Assembly (NCBI GenBank): GCA_964016885.1
Contig: OZ024749.1
Span: forward strand, 3,162,001-3,226,000
Direction: 5' to 3'
Length of the DNA stretch: 64,000 nt
DNA from: Eledone cirrhosa
Taxonomy: Eukaryota
In this document: in pieces, positions 2,700-61,535 of the stretch
Position numbering within the stretch: position 1 is the first letter of the stretch
How the letters are laid out: each line of letters starts with the position of its first letter
Translations under genes and position numbers: made by a program
The notes under the pieces: generated by a model
Database searches by the model: none
Seen by the model: the letters and a program-made list of their open reading frames with translations, nothing else
What the model was told of the DNA's origin: nothing

Positions 2700-3411
2700 T
2701 ATTATTATTATTATTATTATTATAGTTGCTTTATCTTGCTTTATATTCATCCGAGTTATCACCAAGTCACAACCAGTGACCTCAAGAGACAACAAGTTCC
2801 GCCATGTTCAACAAAGTACATATTTACACACACATGCATATTTAGGTGTTTAGACTTGTGATGTACTTATATTGACATACTCTTCCTTATTATATGGGCA
2901 GTCGCCATTAGTAGTATCTTTTGTATTTCTCCTATACGCGGGTTTCCTGGGATTCCTAGAGCGCCTACAACCACTGGTATTGTTTTAGTTCTCAATTTCC
3001 ACATTTTTCCAATTTCTATCTCCAGGTCCTTATACTTGCTTAATTTTTCAAAGGTTTTTATAGATACATTCTTGTCTATTGGAACGGACATATCAATTAG
3101 CAGGCATACCCTCTTTTTAAAGTCCTTCAGTATTATAGCAGGTCTATTTGCATCTATTTTTCGGTCTGTTGGGATGCTAAAGTTCCACAAGATAGAGATG
3201 TGATCTGTTTCAAGTATGGGAGGTGGTTGATGGTCCCACCAATTCTTTTGATGGGCCAGGTCAAAATGCTTACACATTATCCAATGTATGTATTGTGCAC
3301 CTCTGTCATGCCTGTTTAGGTATTCGGTTGGAGCTATAGGACTGCACATTGAAATTATATGATCTATCGTCTCTGGTGTTTTTTACATACGCGGCATAAT
3401 GGGTTGATTCC

Positions 3412-10668: not shown

Positions 10669-12656
10669 CTGATGTAGACAAATAATCAACGACAGATGAA
10701 TTGTTTTCCCTGTCTGCCAGGCTTTGCTCAACACCTGGGTATCAGCAGAATTTCTTCCCTTAACATTATTTTTATCCAGCCTCTTCTCCAAGGAAAATTT
10801 CCTTCACATATTATTACAATGCTAATATGCTAAGGAAACCTTTATGTTTACTGTATTTCGTTTTCCCTTTACACAATTGCATGCAGCTTAATACTTCAGT
10901 AAATTAGCTGTCAGAGATTCTAAAACGATTCCCTTCCCAGGTTGATTTATATTTCCACAAAAGTCCTGTCTTAATGTATCCTCCTAGTGTTTTATAATAC
11001 ATGAAACTGATAATCAGCACCACAATGACGTGTGCACATCATAATTATCAGAATATTTTGGAAATTATGAACAACTTGATGTATGGATCAAGTGGGCTTA
11101 AGCTACCACAAATATGTACCATCATTCGTATCATCAACACTATAACATATTTAAGGTTTCCCTAAACAACTCCTCTCGACTGTGTTCGATATTAGATATA
11201 AATCATTCATTATTATGTTGTTTTATGGACACATTTCTCCCAATCCTGACGAAATAAGTAAAATCCTCAACAAAGTATCATACCTCACAAGATGTTTAAT
11301 TCGTAAATACAGACGGAGTACACACTTTTATTTAGAGTAAACATACATGATTGTTAAAATGGGTGAAAAATATCGCTTACTGAATCCTTTTGTTTTCCTG
11401 CTCAAATACTTGTTGGATTGTACATCCACGTATATGATTACCACATAAATAGCTGCAACACATTACTGTTTGCCTACATTATATGAACATATAGAAGCAA
11501 ATATAGTTATCTTACTACTCCTCAAGCAAGAATACAGAATAGTTATTTCTTAATATTATCTATTACATGCCCTGAAACGATACGCTTAGTAACTGCTAAA
11601 AATATAGTAGCGACTTGAGATAGCAAACGATAATCGACCATGTTTTATTCCTTTAGATACGGGGAAAACATGAAAATAACGAAGATCAGTAAACATTGTC
11701 TAGTAAGAGACGCTATTTTGATTATCTTTAGGATAGGCTTCCATAATGGAACATTTCACTGGAGGATGTTTAGTTTGATTCTTGCATTTGTTAAGCATAG
11801 CTTTTATAACATTCCGTGGTATCAGACATTGTATGAGAATACGAAGATTACGAAAATGAATAAACACTTTCAAAAACGAAAATTGTATGTTGTTTTAAGC
11901 TCTATGTATCTATCGTCTTTTCTTGTAGCATGATATTTTGTTGATGTAAGAGATAAGCTCGCAAGTATTAAACACCATATTTGTTTATTTGGGAAATCGA
12001 TGCCTCGACATTTCAATGTTCTGAACATCTCAATATTTGCTTTCCCTCTTGAATAGTATATTCCAGAAACGTTAACACACATATATATTTCTCGGTTGAT
12101 TCGTTATATTATATTTAGAAAGTAAATGGAATATTTTTACTTTCCTTTATCCATTATTGATACTGTGAATTTCCTTGTTGTTATAATATTTCAGACATGC
12201 ATATTTTAAGTATACACTAGTTTCTTAGAATAACTTACAAATAGTTGCAACTGAAGATATATTAAATAAGACGATATTGTACAGTGGGATGCATAAGCGT
12301 GCTTCTGAAACACATTATGCCGAGTTCGATATTCAAGCACACACACGCAGACACACGCGCCCAAACGCACGCGCAACCTCACGCACACACACACACATAC
12401 ACACACATAAACACACACACACACACATATAAATATATATATAATTTAACGAGATATCGTTTAATGTAATCCAAGTAGAGGTTATGAGTACTCTGTATCG
12501 AGGATAGTTTTAACGTTCGGCGTTGTTTGACTCAACACGACGTTTCCTCAAAAGGGTGACCGGTTAAAGAAAGTTCCTAGGTAAACGATTCTTGGAGTAA
12601 TAATAGTAAATGAGTGAAGAATAACATGGAAATCCTTTACAATAGGCTTTATTCAA

Positions 12657-12767
12657 AGTATTAACAATTGTTTCATTAGTCCGGTGTGTGAAAAAACCGC
12701 TGATCGCTAGAAGTCGCGTCACTCGATTTTAATGACAGTCGACAACCGGCCAAATCTTCAGAATACT
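12657..12767 (-). ncRNA. Hammerhead ribozyme motif (type I, extended helix II)
   Basis: Minus: AGTATT-CTGAAGA-tTTGGCCGGT...ACCGGaCTAAt-GAAA-CAATTG-TT-AATACT; palindromic helix III ACAATTGT. Confidence 0.72.
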
Positions 12768-17744: not shown

Positions 17745-18165
17745 GATTTATAGTATTTAAATGTTTTTCGTATACGGTGATTACAAACTATAATCAGTTC
17801 CTGTTTTTACGCAATAAATCGTCCTTAGATTTAGTAATTTCAAAGATCTCTCCGGAACATAACCTGCATTCTCTCCTGTTCCCAAGATATGGAGTTCTTT
17901 GTGGAATGGTGTTCCACGATAGCTTGAAATCTCTTTTTCTCTTGTTATAGTTATTTACTGCTTCATCTAAAGATGTGGTGTTAGCTAGTTCAGTATTATG
18001 AAAACTACTAGCGTGTGCGTAAAATCTTTTCTTAAATGTGTTTGATGTAGATCCTATATATGTTTTATTAATGCACTGTGTCTACTAGTGACTCCAACAA
18101 AACATATATAGGATCTACATCAAACACATTTAAGAAAAGATTTTACGCACACTCTAGTAGTTTTA
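17745..18165 (-). mobile_element. Penelope-like GIY-YIG endonuclease remnant with 5' inverted duplication
   Basis: Minus: KTYIGSTSNTFKKRFYAHASSFHNTELANTTSL...CRLCSGEIFEITKSKD, homologous to ORF 43483-43944; 18099-18165 is the inverse of about 18001-18068. Confidence 0.82.
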
Positions 18166-37521: not shown

Positions 37522-38239
37522 TTGCGCCAGCATGGATCTAGTCCAGAGTTTGGAACAAGTCATCTACCAAAGCTTTAAAAGGCCATCTAATTGTACACAT
37601 ATACACTTTTATATACGAAATAGAGATATGCAATGCTGTAAAACATGAATATTTATATAAATATAAATACAGTTACTCAAGCTGGATGTAAACAATGAAG
37701 TTTAAGAAGCACAAGAATAACCCAGTAAATGAGGATATATTCACACGCATATAAACTTACATATAATTATGTATAGACATGTAATACTATAAAATATGAT
37801 ACATTGAACGAAAAATCTATAGAGTTTTGTTATAAAATGCTAATTCAATATGTATTGTACTATCATAGTACAAAGGTTGTTTGATACATATGTTGGATAT
37901 TTGCCCTCAGCTATCTTGGTTGTTTTTATAAATCAGTAAATCTCGACTCTATGTCATAAACTGACATATTTCTCATATTTACGTTCATGGGTTCGACTGG
38001 AATTTAACATATTAATCTGCATTTCGAGTATGGCTTAATCTCCTTTAACCGATCTCCCATGTGTTTCTTATACCTTCTTGATCCTGATATTTTCTGTATG
38101 TTCGCTACTTATTAGAATGAGGAGCCCAATCAATGTCAAAATATACACCGGTGCTGTGTTTTCTCCAGTTTCGAATTCATCAGCGACTTTCCAGAGGCTT
38201 GTATTCAGTCTTTTGTACATTATTCTTAGTTAGATTATC

Positions 38240-38890
38240 TTCATCATCATTATCAATCCCTTGACTCTTACTGTCGGGGGGCGGAGATCCTAATGAAAAA
38301 GCAACGTACATTCAAAATAGTCTATCAAGGGCGGCCGTCAGCACAACTAGTGCAGTCATGTACGTCCAATGTTAAAATATTGTCCAACCAGGTTTTTGCG
38401 TTGGTGGCCCCTGCTGCGTCCTCCTTCAACTGTACCTTGCATTATGGTGTTGCAGAGGCTGTTATGTTGTGTAACGTGGCCAAACTATGCCAGTTTGACA
38501 GTGGTGAGGAGAGGTTCCTGGTGAACCACAAAACTATTATCCTTTCTCCACACGTATTCATCAGGTTTACGCTCCCAATAGAAATTTGAAGGAGATTGCT
38601 CGTGCTTTTTTCTCAAATACTTGGATCCGACTCTCTGTTTTTGCCAAAAGTGTCCAGGTCTCCTATCCATATAGGAGGACGAGACTATCAGCGAAGTGTA
38701 CAGTCTGTACTTGGTCTGAAAGCTGATGTTTCTCCTCCATATTCTTGCTAATTTGGCCATCACTGCCATAGCTGCGGCAATCCGTGTGAGAATTTCTCCG
38801 TTGCAGGTATCATCTTTTGACAAGACCGCTCCCAAGTATTTGAAACTGGACACTTCCTCAAATGAATGTCAGTTCATGGTGATATTCACA
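38240..38890 (-). mobile_element. RTE-clade LINE 3' fragment
   Basis: SSFKYLGAVL..GEILTRIAAA..KYRLYTSLIVS; (GAT)n-like tail. Confidence 0.85.

Positions 38891-40930: not shown

Positions 40931-40932
<2 letters not shown>
40790..40932 (+). mobile_element. Diverged FB1 copy without the inverted arm
   Basis: CTCAGCCGTGGAGGTC..TATTACCCACTCTACTACCCTAA..TTCCTTCGTT(AT)n. Confidence 0.7.
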
Positions 40933-40986
<54 letters not shown>

Positions 40987-40990
<4 letters not shown>

Positions 40991-41118
40991 TTTCTGAAGA
41001 CAGTATGTATATGTGAAGGTATGTATATTTCCTCTGATAATTTGTAATATTTTTACATAGATCGATATGATATACATAACAACACACATATACATCCTAG
41101 AAACGATCGTAAAATGAT
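40987..41118 (+). ncRNA. Hammerhead ribozyme motif with ~100-nt helix II domain, in a solo ~200-bp (TA)n-flanked unit
   Basis: ATCATTT-CTGAAGA-cAGtATGTATATGTG...CACATATACATcCTa-GAAA-CGATCG-TA-AAATGAT; perfect 7-bp helix I. Confidence 0.75.
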
Positions 41119-41173
41119 GATTTTTTTTAATATACGGAACTTGTTCTTTGTTTTTATTTCATTGTTTTTATTA

Positions 41174-41224
<51 letters not shown>

Positions 41225-42837: not shown

Positions 42838-42894
42838 GAGAGAGAGATATTAAAACAATGAAATTAAACAAACAACGGTTAATTCATAGTAAAA

Positions 42895-43040
42895 CTCATT
42901 ATGTTACGATCGTTTCTGGGGGGGGGGGGGGTTCTCCGTATGTCCATTCAATTATTGATCTATGTATAATAAATTACAAAATATCTGAGTAAGAAAAAAT
43001 ACATACGTCTTCACTTCCCGCCGTCTTCAGAAATAATGAG
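42895..43040 (-). ncRNA. Hammerhead motif in left PLE repeat, core intact, long helix II domain
   Basis: Minus: CTCATTATTT-CTGAAGA-cGGCGGG...CCCCCCa-GAAA-CGATCG-TA-ACATAATGAG. Confidence 0.72.
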
Positions 43041-43482
43041 TTTTGTTTATTGAAGAATAAAAAAAAACAACGTACATATGAATAAGTAGCGTTTTATAAC
43101 CAGGTTGAGGTTGACCAGTAGTAAAAATAGGAAGAGGCAGTATAGATCCTTAAGTTGGTTGTAGTAGATGAATAAATAAGCAGGGGATGAGGTATCAAAT
43201 GACTTTTGTAACCAGAATATTACTACATAGAACCTGCTACAGCCGCTCACTCACCTCACCAGCACAATACAACATCCTACAACCAACTACCATCTCCCTC
43301 ATCCTTAATAGGGACTAAGAATTACATACACAATCTAACCAATAACTTCCAAAACAACCATGATTCTATTAACGCTATATCCAGTATAATTTCACTAACT
43401 AACATCAATTCGGGCCGCAACCACCCAACCGTAAACCCTTCTCTCCCAAATAAAAAGGTAAACACAAATACAAGCACTATTA

Positions 43483-43944
43483 TTGAGAATATGGATAGCA
43501 CATCTGAAACCCTATATGCAAAATTGTAGAATAAAATATAATTGCCCCTTAAACGGAAATTGCTTACTTAATAATATATTATATAAATGTGTAATCACCA
43601 CTAAAGACTCTAATCAATCCTATATTGGATCCACTTCTATTCCGTTTAAATCGAGATTTTATGCACACACCCACAGTTTCCGAAACACAAAATTAGCTAA
43701 TACCACTTCTTTAGCAGAAGCAGTTAATAATTGTAAAAAGAGGAATATTAAATATAACCTAACTTGGAAGATTCTTAAGAGAGCTATTTCTTATCAAGGC
43801 AATAGAAATTACTGTGGACTGTGTTCCCAAGAAATTTTTGAAATAACTAAATCGAAGGACACTCTATTAAATAAAAAACAAGAATTAATTATAGTATGTA
43901 ACCATAACATTGGAAGGACATTCAAATATTATAAATACAACTAA
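43483..43944 (+). pseudogene. PLE GIY-YIG endonuclease domain (C-terminal fragment)
   Basis: CPLNGNCL, NILYKC...SYIGST, FKSRFYAH, WKIL, CGLCSQE, LLNKKQEL..CNH. Confidence 0.88.
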
Positions 43945-44847
43945 AAAAATATAGAAAATGATATAGGAGAAAAACGTGTGAGTATCTGTGTGTGTGAATA
44001 TGTATATGTGTGTGTGTATGTGTATGCATAAGTGTATGCCTATATATATACGTGTGTATGTACATGTATATGTGTGTGTGTATATAGTATGTGTATGTGT
44101 GTGTGCATGTATATATGTGTATATATATGCGTGTGTATATATATATATATAGTTTCTGCTATTAGAATTAATCCATGGATTAAATCCTATATCTCATCCA
44201 TATAACTGTTTTAAGTAATTAACTATAATTTAGCACTATATATTACATTATTTTCAATAATCTAACAACATTTTTAACTGATATCCATTTAGACCTTCTT
44301 TAAAAAAAACAAAAAAAAACAGATTATAAATGTAGATTCTTATTCGAAAATATAATTCCCTACAGGGAAAACGTCATTCTAACCACTCTAACACAATACA
44401 CTACTTACACAAACTTTAGTTTTTTCTTACCTATATAATATTTTATCTATATTATATCTACATTTTACTTCCATTTGTTTTCATTTATATTCCTCTACTT
44501 AGTATATTATATATTTTTTAGAACAAATTATTCCTCACAACAAAGAAATAACTAACTTTTTAAGATTGTTCTACACCATTCTACTTGATGTAACCCACTA
44601 ATCTCAGTACCCCTTTCCCTCCAACCGTAATCTTCTTTGACCATCAACACTTTCATATACATTATGTCTAAATTCATTTACACTAGCAACTTTCATTTCT
44701 TTTCTTAAATGTCATTTGATACATCATCCCCTGCTTATTTATTCATCTACTACTACCAAATAAGGATCTATACTGCCCCTTCCTATTCTTACTATTGGTG
44801 AACCACAACCTGGTTATAAAACGTTACTTATTCACATTTTTATTTTT

Positions 44848-45006
44848 CGGACGCCATGCTTTGCAGCACAGTTACGTCCCTTTACGGACTCAGTTCAAAT
44901 CCCGCTGAGGTTAACTTTGCCTTTCATCCTTACGGGGTCGATAAAATAAAGTACCAGTAATGCACTGGGTATTTGCTGGCCTTGTGCCAAAAGTAGAAAC
45001 AATTAT
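44848..45006 (+). mobile_element. SINE, slightly 5'-truncated, inside the PLE repeat
   Basis: CGGACGCCATGC..GTTCAAATCCCG..GTAGAAACAATTAT. Confidence 0.88.
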
Positions 45007-45036
45007 TTTTTTTTTTGTATTCTTCAATAAACAAAA

Positions 45037-45177
45037 CTCATTATTTCCGAAGACGGCGGGTAGTGAAGCCGTATGTATTTTTTGTTACTATGGTATTTTG
45101 TAATTTATTTTACATAGATCAATAATTGAATGGAAATACGGGGAAATACCCTCCAGACACGATAGTAAAATAATGAG
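45037..45177 (+). ncRNA. Mutated hammerhead motif in right PLE repeat
   Basis: CTCATTATTT-CCGAAGA...GACA-CGATAG-TA-AAATAATGAG. Confidence 0.55.
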
Positions 45178-45349
45178 TTTTACTATGAATTAACTGTTTT
45201 TTGTTTAATTTCATTGTTTTAATATTTCTATTTTTGAATTATATCGTTGAAAATTTTGTGTTTTAAACTTTGCTTCACGCCAATTTCTACATACGGATTA
45301 CATTGAGTTCTTCATACGGTTTAGATCCTATCATTGATTGGTAGATTTA

Positions 45350-47960
<2,611 letters not shown>

Positions 47961-48218: not shown

Positions 48219-50255
48219 AGTAATAATAATAAATGTGAAGACTAAAATCCAAAGAGGGTTCGATAAGGATAAATATATATCAAATATATAAGAACTCTAG
48301 AGTAAATATTTATTAAAATAACAGATTAAAGTTTAAGAAATAATCGCTGCGTTCACCTTTAACGGGATCTTCTGAAAGTAAAAAATCAATCTGTGAACGC
48401 AGAATTAATATTTCGAAAACGTTGCAACCGAAGGAAAACAGGAAGACGATGCCTTGATTCGTGAAGACGTTCCCTGGCCATGAACGGAAAATGCAAAGAT
48501 AACTACGTCGTTATGTGGAGCGATGAGAACAAATACACGCAAAGACAAAACCACGTTCATGGTATAAATGAAGTCGTAGACTAATATTCTTTTTAGGAAA
48601 CCGAATGATTCTTCGCTTCAGAGTTAAGAATAATTGTTTCTACTTTAGGCACAAGGTCAGCAATTACCCAGTACATTACTGGTACTTTATTTTATCGACC
48701 CCGTAAGGATGAAAGGCAAAGTCAACCTCGGCGGGATTTGAACTCGGATCGTAAAGGGACGTAACTATGCTGGAAAGCATGTCGTCCGACCCTCTACCGC
48801 TACTGCCAATCCACCGCCAGAGCTAAGAATAATGTAAATAAATTAGTAGAACGAAAATGACAGAGGTTATTATAATCATAAAAGTAATAATAACTAAATA
48901 TATACATATACACATGTAGTAGGTACATACAAGTACATACGCGAAAACACCCGCCGTGCATGCATATACATTCGCACGTACACATAAACACGCGCACACA
49001 TACACAAACCTGCGCGACATATGTACCCGCGCACATACGAACGTATGCACCGCATATACATAAAAAATATCTATGTGCGTGTGTATACATATAATTATAT
49101 AAACGTATATCAATATACACATATCAATACGTATATAGCGCACGCACACACACACCTACTAGTAAATACACATATCTTCACCAAACGTACGTCAAACAAA
49201 ACACAACGTACACATATACACACCTTACACACGTGCAAACAAGCATACACGCATGCACACACAAATACAAAATACATATATACACATAACCATATACACA
49301 TATACCACTATATATAATATAATATATACACCTATAACAAATACATGCATATATACTTACTAGAAAGTATATGTACCTTCAAAAAATATACGGGTAAGGT
49401 ATCCTTACCTATAGAAATAAGTAATGGTAATTAACATAAAATATACTTAGCTACCACATCAAGCCGTAAATTATCCGCGTACTTTTCGTACTATCCGTTA
49501 GGGTATAATGTGTGGCTGTAATACAGGAAAGTTTTATGCAATTTGTGTTTACACGCCGAAATTGCCTCAGATTTTTTGTTTAAGATGTGGTTATTTGCGT
49601 AGAGTTTTTCTAGGGCTTCAGCGGCGCAAAGGTCGCATGGTCTTTTATTTCCGTTATAAGATATAGCTCTAGCTAGGATCTCCCAGTGTAACCTATATTG
49701 GGTGTGGTTGTCTTTTAGACTCCAGATATAAGTGAAAGTGACGTCATATTCCTTCTTAAATGATTAAGAAAAGAATGGGTGTGCATGTAAAGACGCTGCT
49801 TCAATCTATTGGCGGTTACTCTATATAGGCCCTACGGGACGTGGGTGTTTCGAACTTACATTTGTAGACAATTTACTGGAGAGGCATTTCCCGGTTAGGG
49901 GGCAGTCAGCCCGAGACCTACAATTACAGTTAGTACTAGCTACAGGGTTGGACGTGTTACTATGGCTAGGTAATTTAGCAAAATTTGAAGCAGTGATGTT
50001 ATGTGCAAGTATTGGAGTCGTAGAGTAAGATATTTTAATGGTATTTCTATGAAAAAAATTATTATGTTTATGTGCTGAAGGGAAATTCTTCTTAATAAAG
50101 GAGAGAATGTTCTTAGCTAATGGTGTGGCCACCTCCATATTATATGGTTGGTTATACCATATAATGCGTCGGGTTCTATTTTTCCTGGTCTATGCTCATA
50201 CTTAGTTTATGCTACTTTATGCACAAATCCACTCTGGGCAAGAGCCTTATTGTAA
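48219..50255 (-). mobile_element. Second copy of the same Penelope-like family, opposite orientation, frameshifted
   Basis: MEVATPLAK..IKISYSTTP..CNCRSRADCPLTGKCL; colinear with 45860-47890 including the TG-rich 3' UTR. Confidence 0.92.
48631..48817 (-). mobile_element. SINE, full length, inside PLE 3' region
   Basis: Family motifs; TSD CAGAGYTAAGAATAAT. Confidence 0.9.
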
Positions 50256-55008: not shown

Positions 55009-55621
55009 TTCATCCTCTATATCTCTTTATCATTTACTCTCTCACACTTTCTATCTTTCTCTGTAATAAATCTGCTGTTCTCAGGCTTTGAGCGGGATGG
55101 ATTCCGCCAGGCTTAAAATGCCCAAGAAACGCCGCACCTCAATCCGGTACTCCTACAATTTTGTCAGGAGTTACGGCACCATACTATATTCATCTAAAAC
55201 CTTCCATAGTATCGTGTCAGCAAGTGTGTTAATTTAATCTGCAATTCCCTAAATTAATAATGCATAATTTAGTTATATTACTAAATACCTTTAAATTCGG
55301 GAATATATCCAAAATGATGTTAACATCATAACCAGTGTCTTTCGTTAGAAATACTGTAACGAAATCTTTAACGTAATTAACGTGATTCATTAGTGTGACA
55401 ACATACTTAATTACAACGTAACCAATCCTTCTCGGTGTCGACGACGAGCAGCCTATACCTAGCCTGTGTTAGGTTGACTATGTCAGAGATATGCAAACCA
55501 TTAATGTAATTCTTAGGACACAATATAGCGTAAAATATATCAACAAAAACGTTAACAAAAGTAAGAAAGCATTCAATGATGTGAACATCAAACAACAATA
55601 ATATGAACAATACCGATGACC

Positions 55622-56606
55622 TCAACAACATCAGCAACAATAACAACATCGACTCCAATAACAACATCAGCAACAATAACAACATCGACTCCAATAACAA
55701 CATCAGCAACAATAACAACATCGACTCCAATAACAACATCAACAACAATAACAACATCGACTCCAATAACAACATCAGCAACAATAACAACATCGACTCC
55801 AATAACAACATCAACAACAATAACAACATCGACTCCAATAACAACATCAACAACAATAACAACATCAACAACAATAACAACATCAACAACAATAACAACA
55901 TCGACTCCAATAACAACATCAACAACAATAACAACATCGACTCCAATAACGACATCAACAACAATAACAACATCGACTCCAATAACAACATCAACAACAA
56001 TAACAACATCGACTCCAATAACAACATGGACTCCAATAACGACATCAACAACAATAACAACATCGACTCCAATAACAACATCAACAACAATAACAGCATC
56101 GACTCCAATAACAACATCGACTCCAATAACGACATCAACAACAATAACAACATCGACTCCAATAACAACATCAACAACAATAACAACATCAGCAATAATA
56201 ACAACATCGACTCCAATAACAACATCAACAACAATAACAACATCAACAACAATAACAACATCGACTCCAATAACAACATCAACAACAATAACAACATCGA
56301 CTCCAATAACAACATCAACAACAATAACAACATCAGCAAATATAACAACATCGACTCCAATAACAACATCAACAACAATAACAACATCGACTCCAATAAC
56401 AACATCATCAACAATAACAACATCGACTCCAATAACAACATCAGCAAATATAACAACAACAGCAACAGCAGCATCGGCAACAGCAACAACAACAACAACA
56501 ACATCAATAGCAACAACAACAACAGTAACACCAACATTAACAACAACATCAACAGCTATAACAACAAGAACAATAACAACATCGACAATAACAACAACAA
56601 CAATAA
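55622..56606. repeat. ~1-kb AAC-derived 18-bp minisatellite
   Basis: AATAACAACATC + GACTCC / AACAAC / AGCAAC, decaying into (AAC)n. Confidence 0.95.
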
Positions 56607-58262
56607 CCCAAGTCAACAATTCTAAGAATTGAAGGCTCACCAAATTCGTTTGATTCTGATTGAAATCTATTCCAGTCGCTACAGTGATTGTGACTCATCC
56701 GGTTCGATAAATAACCTTTAGCTAATCGATCAACTCTCATATATAATTGTTCACCCTTCTTTTGTTGCTTGGTGGATCACACACGAACAGATAAATATCT
56801 TGCACTTCATGTACTGAGATGTTAGTTCTCGTCTTTATTTTACTGACACATATTTTGTTCAATATAGCTACATTGTTGTTCAATTAAGTAATTACTAATC
56901 GTTCAGATTATATAACGAAATAATTCCAAACTAGATAATCCCGTCATTTTATAAATCTAGCTCTATATCACAATCAAGTTATATTTGTAATATTCACCAA
57001 AATATAATCTCCTCTCTATTTTATTCAATGTACATCATTTTTTTTTTCTTTCTTTGGTTTATCCAGAGTTCATTGCTGGTATATATCACACAACCTACCA
57101 TAGTGCGGGATGTATGATGAAGAGCGTTCCAACAGCGACTTCCCATTGTTTTATTCGAAATTCTGCCATCTACTTTAGGTATTGAGTACTTACATATTTA
57201 CAATGAAGGTAATTTAATATCATTTATCTCTTACAGTTGTGATCCAGCATGATCTAAAATGTAAGAATATTCCAGCTCACAAAATCCAATCTTTGTGTAT
57301 ATACATTGAGATTATTTCTTTATGGCAGATATGTTAGGTCGTGGTATAAAACGCTTCGTTATATGTCCCGAAACTTTGCCCTCTGAGATCGACTAATACA
57401 GAAGCCAAATTAGCCTTTGATCCTTTCAAGTGTTTGGTGAATCAACGGAATCAATCTTTAAATTTGATCGACTTCCGTCCGTCATACTATGTGTGTGTAA
57501 AAGGAAGGAAGGGGTTGGTAAAAAAAACAATAGGAAAACAATTTGATACGCTGTGTGTGAGATTATGTATATGTGTGTGTTTCTGTACATGTGTGTGTGT
57601 TTGTGTGTATGTAAGTGTATTTGTGTGAATGTATGTCTGTCAGTGGGTATTTTTGTAAGTGTGTGTGTGCGCGTTTATATGTTTTATATACACATACATA
57701 TAGATATATGCGTATGCACATACACACACGCACATATATATACACATGCACGTCAGCGTGCTGAAAACAATTCTAGTCGTTAACAAGTGGGATATGATGT
57801 GTTGCAGCAGTTCTTATCCGATTTCAAATCCCAGCTTCTGACATCGGAATGTGTATTCCAAACGTCGAGACAAGCTGATAACATCAGAAATGATTCACCT
57901 AATTGAAACTACGTTTCTTTTATATTTTACTTATAATTGTTTCATACAATCTCACGATTTCAGAGTGTATGATGTGATCTGAATTTGATTAACTAGTTAA
58001 TTTTTAAGTAGAGTCGTCACGTAAAGTCTCCATCGAAATCTCCCTTATTAACCAGTGTCCAGAATAGAAATGAATACAACTGAGATATTGGCAGTTTATT
58101 TTGGGAAGCCTCATATTTCCACCGCAAATTCCTAGTCCATTCCAGCTTTCAAAAACGAGTTATATATTCACAGAAAATAATCAAATTTAAAGAATCTAAT
58201 ATCACATGATTTACAGTGACGAAAATCTGTACTTGCTCAGTTCTTGCCCACTCACACTCTCT

Positions 58263-60811: not shown

Positions 60812-61515
60812 CTACAGCTGCATTTATCTTGCTTTATGTTCATACGAGTTATCACCAAGTCACAACCAGTGACCTCAAGAGACAACAAGGTCCGCCCTGT
60901 TCAACAAAGAACATACATACTCACACACGCATCTTTAGGTGTTTTGACTTGTGATGTACTTATATTGACGGAATCTTCCTTAGTATATGGGCAGTTCCCA
61001 TTAGTACTATCTTTTGTATTTCTCCTATACGCGGGTTCCCTGGGATTTGCGATAAGTAATCATTATACCCCTTAGGTATCATTCCCAGAGCGCCTACAAC
61101 CACTGGTATTGTTTTAGTTCTCAATTTCCACATTTTTCCAATTTCTATCTCCAGGTCCTTATACTTGCTCAATTTTTCAAATGTTTTTATAGATACATTC
61201 TTGTCTATTGGAACAGACATATCAATTAGCTGGCATACCCTCTTTTTAAACTCCTTCAGTATTGTATCATGTCTATTTATATCTATTTTTCGGTCTGTTT
61301 GGATGCTAAAATTCCACAAGATTGAGATGTGATCTTTTTCAAGTATGGGAGGTGGTTGATGCTCCCACCAATTCTTTTGATGGGGCAGGTCAAAATGCTT
61401 ACACATTATCCAATGTATGTATTGTGCAGCTCTGTCATGCCTGTTTAGGTATTGGGTTTGAGTTATAGGACTGCACATTGAAATTATATGGTCAATAGTC
61501 TCTGCATCCATTTTT
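60812..61515 (-). mobile_element. R4/Dong family A 3' fragment
   Basis: 183-aa open RLE domain, colinear with 2724-3375. Confidence 0.9.
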
Positions 61516-61535
61516 TCATTTATTTATTTATTTTA

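Follow-up and report, generated by a model that had tools for sequence, protein, structure and literature searches.

A solo hammerhead unit between (TA)n microsatellites in Eledone cirrhosa: a very probable Penelope-like retrotransposon end with a long helix II arm

What is a unit of about 200 bp that consists almost entirely of one hammerhead motif, carries a helix II domain of about 100 nt, and lies alone between two (TA)n runs? The locus belongs to a 64,000-nt stretch of Eledone cirrhosa DNA (contig OZ024749.1, positions 3,162,001 to 3,226,000; here called the window), which is microsatellite-rich animal DNA. The original prediction described a stand-alone, atypical large-domain hammerhead with a conserved loop that could bind a protein or make a tertiary contact. 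The atypical large-domain reading is supported; the unit itself does not stand alone, being almost certainly a truncated end from a 3.5-kb retrotransposon of the Hydra clade. Features are listed in Table 1, and relative positions are counted from hammerhead C3 (40994 = 0).

Table 1. Features of the unit and of related loci in the window
Feature	Positions	Strand	Remark
(TA)n target microsatellite, 5' side	40932..40988	.	final AT common to element
Family A subfamily A1a pLTR, 5'-truncated 3' end of (almost certainly) a Hydra-clade Penelope-like element	40987..41180	+	
Helix I 5' arm ATCATTT	40987..40993	+	begins at -7 from C3
Hammerhead core CUGAAGA (DNA CTGAAGA)	40994..41000	+	
99-nt helix II domain, predicted interrupted rod	41001..41099	+	
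Apical block with conserved internal loop	41036..41063	+	
GAAA, palindromic helix III ACGAUCGU and helix I 3' arm	41100..41118	+	
Element-encoded U-rich stretch	41119..41180	+	stops at short 3' end, +184 from C3
(TA)n target microsatellite, 3' side	41177..41221	.	
Distant-family hammerhead, 80-nt helix II	12656..12767	-	same loop, UCG-[AGUG]/[CAG]-CGG
Family B inverted pLTR	42850..43120	-	hammerhead core intact (43024-43030)
Family B linker and GIY-YIG endonuclease fragment	43462..43944	+	CxCX5C altered; CxxC, CxH present
Family B direct pLTR, long tail	45000..45355	+	core mutated (45047-45053)

The 194-base unit differs from the majority sequence of its subfamily by five substitutions and one insertion. 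The predicted (TA)n start, helix I, intact core, and GUA site are all present, and CUGANGA, GAAA, NUH, and helices I to III together make up a type I hammerhead. GAAA lies at 41100-41103, the palindrome ACGATCGT at 41103-41110, and the last base of GUA at 41111, after which cleavage is predicted; the helix I 3' arm, AAATGAT, follows at 41112-41118. Helix I does form the 7 bp originally described, although its first AT could belong to the microsatellite and helix I of the parent element is 9 bp. Within its 5' arm (40987-40993), TCATTT is presumably initiator-like. The foot of helix II is a C.A mismatch in families A and B rather than the Watson-Crick pair G10.1-C11.1; mismatches at 10.1-11.1 are known among active or published hammerheads. 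An Rfam search of the unit returned no hammerhead at the gathering threshold or at E<=10, and the unit strand folds better than shuffles (z = -2.9). Helix III has a computed energy of 0.0 kcal/mol as a monomer hairpin and -10.0 kcal/mol as a duplex, and cleavage via the palindrome would probably depend on dimers. The 41k copy is single, so its palindrome has no partner, and it has lost the C.C mismatch of its family. This insertion is an ordinary dead fragment. No pointer to tandem or circular forms of the unit was found.

The identity of the parent element emerges from longer copies. A DNA search with the unit gave 1,870 candidates, of which 40 were scored; the best of these are 95-97% identical to the unit, and most of the scored copies extend upstream into common sequence, including a 3' UTR. 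In one of them (L006) a GIY-YIG frame stops 710 nt upstream of the unit, and longer copies carry a reverse transcriptase (RT). A nearly full-length copy (L101) reads, in order, the ~125-nt "tail" as 5' UTR, a long broken frame, the 3' UTR, the hammerhead, and the tail. Near-full copies encode RWR, DKT, YRDD, CxCX5C, CxxC, and CxH. The protein marks of the Hydra clade are defined in section 11 of PMC8557442, and the element carries them: RWR and SDKT in L101, L282, and L283 agree with the clade's RWK and DKG-to-DKT marks; the linker CNCRIKRNC together with CRLC and CNH matches CxCX5C, CxxC, and CxH; and a single open reading frame encodes RT followed C-terminally by a GIY-YIG endonuclease (EN). 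Insertion into (TA)n, the pLTR, the tail, and inverted 5' copies, all traits of the clade, are likewise found. Nematis and Neptune were rejected in favor of Hydra on these section 11 marks. A Pfam search gave GIY-YIG below threshold only (E 0.069) and no RT match. The unit is almost certainly the terminal 3' part of a young Penelope-like retrotransposon of the Hydra clade (RT plus C-terminal GIY-YIG), the clade being assigned from motifs and a by-eye comparison with Hydra-1_Obim. An exact 25-nt word occurs 315 times and a 29-nt word 417 times genome-wide, giving at least 315 copies. Viral contigs contained no relatives. A plus-strand, N-rich RT-EN frame of 1115 aa (L120), from another Penelope-like lineage, adjoins one family A insertion.

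The hammerheads at 42.9k and 45.0k, to which the unit had been likened, belong to one truncated family B copy, forming its inverted and direct ends on either side of an endonuclease fragment. Family B is a sister family of A; the endonuclease DNA is 75% identical between the two, and a piece of the 3' UTR is 66% identical. The shared TTTGTAAT..TACATAGATC block and the differing basal helix II stems are both real; the block is also present at 45.0k, although the core there is broken (CCGAAGA, GACAC). At about 44840-44990, the family B copy has a repeat, which we take to be SINE-like, inserted in its 3' UTR, and the same repeat splits a hammerhead stem elsewhere (L076). The window also holds three Hydra-type endonuclease fragments, at 45782-46612 (+), 49518-50183 (-), and 17800-18063 (-), which are 33-59% identical to family A; a hammerhead scan behind these fragments found no intact copy. 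Further repeats are a 36-bp tandem array of 27 copies at 55585-56625, in which several frames are open and N-rich or T-rich, and decayed LINE-like fragments at 756-1833, 2867-3382, 38230-38868, and 60960-61523.

Both boundaries of the unit recur in the family. When 99 family A copies were anchored on one word, the 3' end fell near +184 in 61, near +311 in 37, and elsewhere in 1. The short T-rich tail noted originally does exist but is element sequence, stopping at the family's short 3' end, and +184 would be a first RT start site. The ~125 nt from +184 to +311 double as 5' UTR for the next copy; the two fixed 3' ends resemble the tail of the anole element, for which two start sites were shown in vitro (PMC11167929). 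In L159, L161, and their relatives, RYTC..GARY arms begin about 6 nt past both +184 and +311. When L159 was folded, the hairpin expected beyond the short end was not recovered, though family copies visibly carry ACTC..GAGT-like arms.

At the 5' side, reference mapping places the ends of 43 of 153 family A copies at -12..+7, a count that includes both arms of inverted pairs. This corresponds to 0.019 ends per nt versus 0.0008-0.002 elsewhere, about ten times the flanking rate; five ends at -40 are reference-edge artefacts, and all-against-all mapping is confounded by inverted pairs. The peaks lie at -7 (7 copies), where the unit in the window begins, and at -4 (9 copies). Family B shows 11 of 27 ends at -8..+1, and a family with a 36-nt stem shows 13 of 31 at -70..-65, distant from the ribozyme. 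One tandem-loop family has a weak hot spot (3 distinct ends at -44/-43 among 30), and family F4 has no 5'-end cluster among 29 ends. Seventeen copies genome-wide share the exact (TA)n junction of the window (A1a 8, A1b 8, mixed 1; long tail in 4); because they are split over subfamily states and both tails, these solo copies arose independently. Longer copies also occur: 11 of 30 ORF-side copies extend past -7 into the preceding 3' UTR and therefore need read-through, circles, or jumps. There is no peak of ends at the cut site, within 3 nt of which only 1 of 30 downstream-anchored copies ends, in line with an uncut RNA as template.

We lean slightly toward the 5' hot spot being an RNA start at which the cDNA runs off. 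With respect to promoter-like sequence, AGACG lies at +28 relative to the A at -7 in family B (by eye), a 7/8 match to RGACGTGY; the corresponding DPE-like match is 4/5 in family A (by eye) and absent in the 36-nt family. An extra G, a sign of cap copying, is found at about 2 of 16 5' joints at -7/-4. Alternatively, the hot spot could be a mechanical stop, produced by RT pausing or by cDNA annealing through self-complementarity, with no RNA start. The hot spots overlap the short palindromes CATATG and TTCWGAA, about two-thirds of the family A hot-spot ends are inverted joints, many of them head-to-head through these palindromes, and most copies read past the site, as would fit such a stop; so would the lack of a hot spot in F4. 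We nevertheless consider a purely mechanical stop the less likely account, because, of the 43 hot-spot ends in family A, about 13 (by eye) join (TA)n or unique DNA directly, 17 copies share one exact junction, short and long 3' ends use the same site (11 of 32 for the long form), and the peaks of all three families fall on the A of TCA. An origin by poly(A) cleavage may apply to families A and B, in which AATAAA lies 20 nt upstream; other families carry AATAAA downstream of the ribozyme, so this origin is not general. More precisely, AATAAA is found 3-15 nt past the cut site in most long-stem families and ~20 nt before the core in A and B. We could dismiss a splice acceptor at this site, since A2 and B lack the CAG.

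The helix II domain, read as a loop in the original prediction, is instead predicted to be mostly paired. For A (99-102 nt) and B (102 nt) alike, the majority sequences of the subfamilies give one and the same interrupted rod on folding (z -6.5), which runs from the C.A foot through 2 bp, a mismatch (C.C in the family, U.C in the window), 11 bp, a loop, ~12 bp, a loop, 3 bp, and the motif loop to a 5-bp hairpin. As had been proposed, stem pairing is kept with different sequence: across 28 real copies, four of seven basal helix II pairs and one helix I pair change on both sides. In these copies 95.8% of cells pair, versus 27-54% in slid controls; the shuffle control of this pairing test is inflated by the relatedness of the copies. 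The apical pairs yield no covariation because they hardly vary. The proposal that the loop motif is conserved beyond its flanks also holds, since the apical block is identical between A and B at 27/28 positions, as against 25/31 upstream and 46/57 downstream. Lower in the rod, the two families carry differing loops. We conclude that helix II is likely a rod carrying a selected loop module.

Such long arms are abundant. Genome-wide there are 19,529 matches in which CTGANGA and GAAAC-NNNN-GTH-type ends are separated by 76-104 nt, versus 121 in a reversed control, and sampled loci form 37 clusters of long-stem motifs. Shorter stems of 12-62 nt are also present; the 36-nt-stem family (L326-L355, G000 C1) has 21,366 exact 29-mer matches, and many of its copies form short pairs that meet head to head at -69/-70.

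Across these families the internal loop recurs. In the window it reads GAU-[AAUU] (41039-41042) opposite [UAG] (41058-41060)-AUC, and its general form within the rod is a 4x3 internal loop, A-N-U-K opposite Y-A-G, closed by C-G, U-A, or G-C. The motif was first spotted by eye and then tested post hoc in the same families, using 17 of the 37 clusters after 16 near-duplicates and 4 likely chance or decayed clusters had been dropped. The signature is present in the predicted structures of 11 of the 17 families, and the runner-up signature in 2; in 150 runs each, the best of any signature was 5 in dinucleotide shuffles and 7 when unpaired bases were permuted. A tandem loop, defined by spacings of 10-14 nt on the 5' side and 9-13 nt on the 3' side, is found in 10 of the 17 families; in 500 shuffles no signature exceeded 5, and this one reached no more than 2. 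The observed 5' spacing is 10-14 nt, with 11 nt in 8 of 13 hand-registered families (row R286, which has a one-base offset, was left out of the register). Families A and B carry a single copy, and the N position varies among subfamilies (A, G, U). When the structure constraint is removed, the motif test is not significant (7 of 16 lineages versus a shuffle maximum of 8 and mean of 5.8). The domains are 53-72% identical to one another in gapped alignment, and shuffles 54%. For six carrier families, frames sharing 34-41% identity with family A lie 0.5-1.2 kb upstream, and no upstream frame was seen for the remaining carriers, of which few copies were examined; since the families are related, descent contributes to the recurrence. 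The loop recurs in distant families as well, which also supports the proposed conservation. The bulged-G or S-turn motif is AGUA opposite GAA with non-canonical pairs; the recurring loop has the same 4x3 size and U.A, and its end pairs differ.

What might such a loop do? A dimeric protein would fit its invariant bases and its spacing of one turn, and we give roughly even weight to its being a protein docking site; the docked protein would most likely be the element's own RT-EN. The anole ribozyme cuts only with its protein in vitro, with the binding site not located in the available sections of PMC11167929, which predict the anole protein to be a dimer. The arm would probably tune folding or cleavage and be dispensable for mobility, since short-stem families spread well. 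A branched family with a 94-96 nt helix II (L011, L232, L297, L397) lacks the loop motif, and no upstream ORF was found in the copies of it that were tested.

The main rival is a purely structural role, in which the loop is a self-contained module that keeps the rod stacked and breaks up long double-stranded RNA against editing or dicing, with no specific protein involved. Cephalopods show heavy A-to-I editing. Internal loops recur about one turn apart (3' distances from GAAA of 14-19, 24-30, and 38-39 nt), and the differing lower loops of A and B would also be expected of such a module. However, breaking a helix does not need a fixed A, U, A, and G, and tandem loops on one helical face suit a dimeric binder, so we regard this role as possible but doubtful. 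Still less probable is docking of the loop on helix I, or on the ribozyme of a dimer partner, so as to speed cleavage. Natural hammerheads do use contacts between stems I and II (PMC3088659, as far as its available text goes), and the palindrome favors dimers; yet the loop lies 15-39 nt up the rod at a height that varies by family, helix I has only 3-14 bp, and the mismatch at pair 4 would be better placed for such a contact. The tertiary contact suggested originally, if of the classical loop1-loop2 kind, is likewise unlikely because the motif sits 38 nt up the rod. Finally, a non-autonomous origin, with a SINE-like or retrozyme-like unit spreading from its own master, is very improbable, even with 17 copies sharing a junction and retrozymes deriving from pLTRs (bioRxiv 10.64898/2026.07.22.740005, in part), because the solos make up ~4-5% of the family, are not tandem, and are split over subfamilies and both 3' ends, the short form ending before the tail sequence past the start site; a SINE-like family with its own master is thereby largely refuted.

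Returning to docking and an RNA start, the explanation that we favor overall, and hold to be probable, combines RT priming, run-off, and a rod with a docking loop. The RT protein of the element would nick (TA)n DNA and prime at the internal start site +184 on RNA from an upstream pLTR, copy through the uncut ribozyme, and drop off the RNA 5' end at the 5' edge of the hammerhead, leaving a solo unit. Longer copies would come from read-through, circular RNA, or a jump, and the loop of the long rod would serve as a docking site for the element's protein. Penelope has an internal promoter (PMC2377424, promoter-related text). A bolder version, which we offer only tentatively and think rather unlikely, makes the hammerhead arm a dedicated RNP arm: one or two loops, spaced by one turn, would bind a dimeric, telomerase-related RT and switch the ribozyme, and an RNA start at the ribozyme edge, with priming 190 or 320 nt downstream, would yield strong-stop-like cDNA that inserts alone or jumps on to copy the entire element.

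Penelope-like elements retain a hammerhead that cuts poorly, and a loop conserved in families with proteins ~35-40% identical offers binding and cleavage assays a well-defined target. The fixed 5' boundary allows a direct test of the RNA start and bears on the origin of pLTRs, solo ends, and head-to-head pairs. Because Rfam misses ~20,000 such motifs, with stems longer than in the literature consulted, in one genome, animal hammerheads are probably undercounted.

Comparison with known systems separates what is familiar from what is distinctive. The clade, its association with ribozymes, the tail, and solo ends are already known. In the C-terminal EN+ Hydra clade (Craig et al. 2021, PMC8557442, relevant sections), the tail is 30-40 nt, versus ~125 nt here, and the 26 Hydra rows of File S2 have 12-26 nt between CUGANGA and GAAA, versus a 99-102 nt helix II with a recurring internal loop. 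Relatives on metagenome contigs have 23-25 nt stems in the 13 of 27 loci in which a motif was found, several being duplicates. From these lengths, the long arm appears to be lineage-specific among the hammerheads compared; at ~100 bases it is 4-8 times as long as in published relatives. In the literature that we searched, neither a 75-105 nt stem II nor such a loop is described; the "long helix II" of PMC13725137 is 6-8 bp, and the main text of a 2026 octopus repeat paper does not mention ribozymes. The minimal hammerheads of Penelope-like elements (Cervera and de la Peña 2014, PMC4209133, in the sections available) are also type I with a palindromic helix III and likely dimeric, occur mostly as single motifs from truncated copies, and have an extra base after A9, but their helix II is 6-8 bp with G10.1-C11.1, whereas here it is ~33 bp in five segments with a C.A foot. 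Non-LTR retrozymes (PMC7229834; bioRxiv 10.64898/2026.07.22.740005; both in part) are likewise short, pLTR-related, and type I; they are tandem non-coding repeats with one ribozyme each, whereas the unit belongs to a coding element and occurs dispersed, as single copies, and membership was rejected. Poseidon PAc of the green anole (Frangieh et al. 2024, PMC11167929) shares the AT-rich target, a tail delimited by two internal RT start sites, a template that is mainly uncut RNA, and a ribozyme that is protein-assisted in the PAc assay; it belongs to another clade, and the sections of that paper available describe neither a long stem II nor a 5'-end hot spot. In Drosophila virilis Penelope (Schostak et al. 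2008, PMC2377424, as excerpted), transcription similarly starts within the pLTR, with an Inr and an RGACGTGY downstream element, but there the start was mapped, whereas here it is putative, and no intron is seen here.
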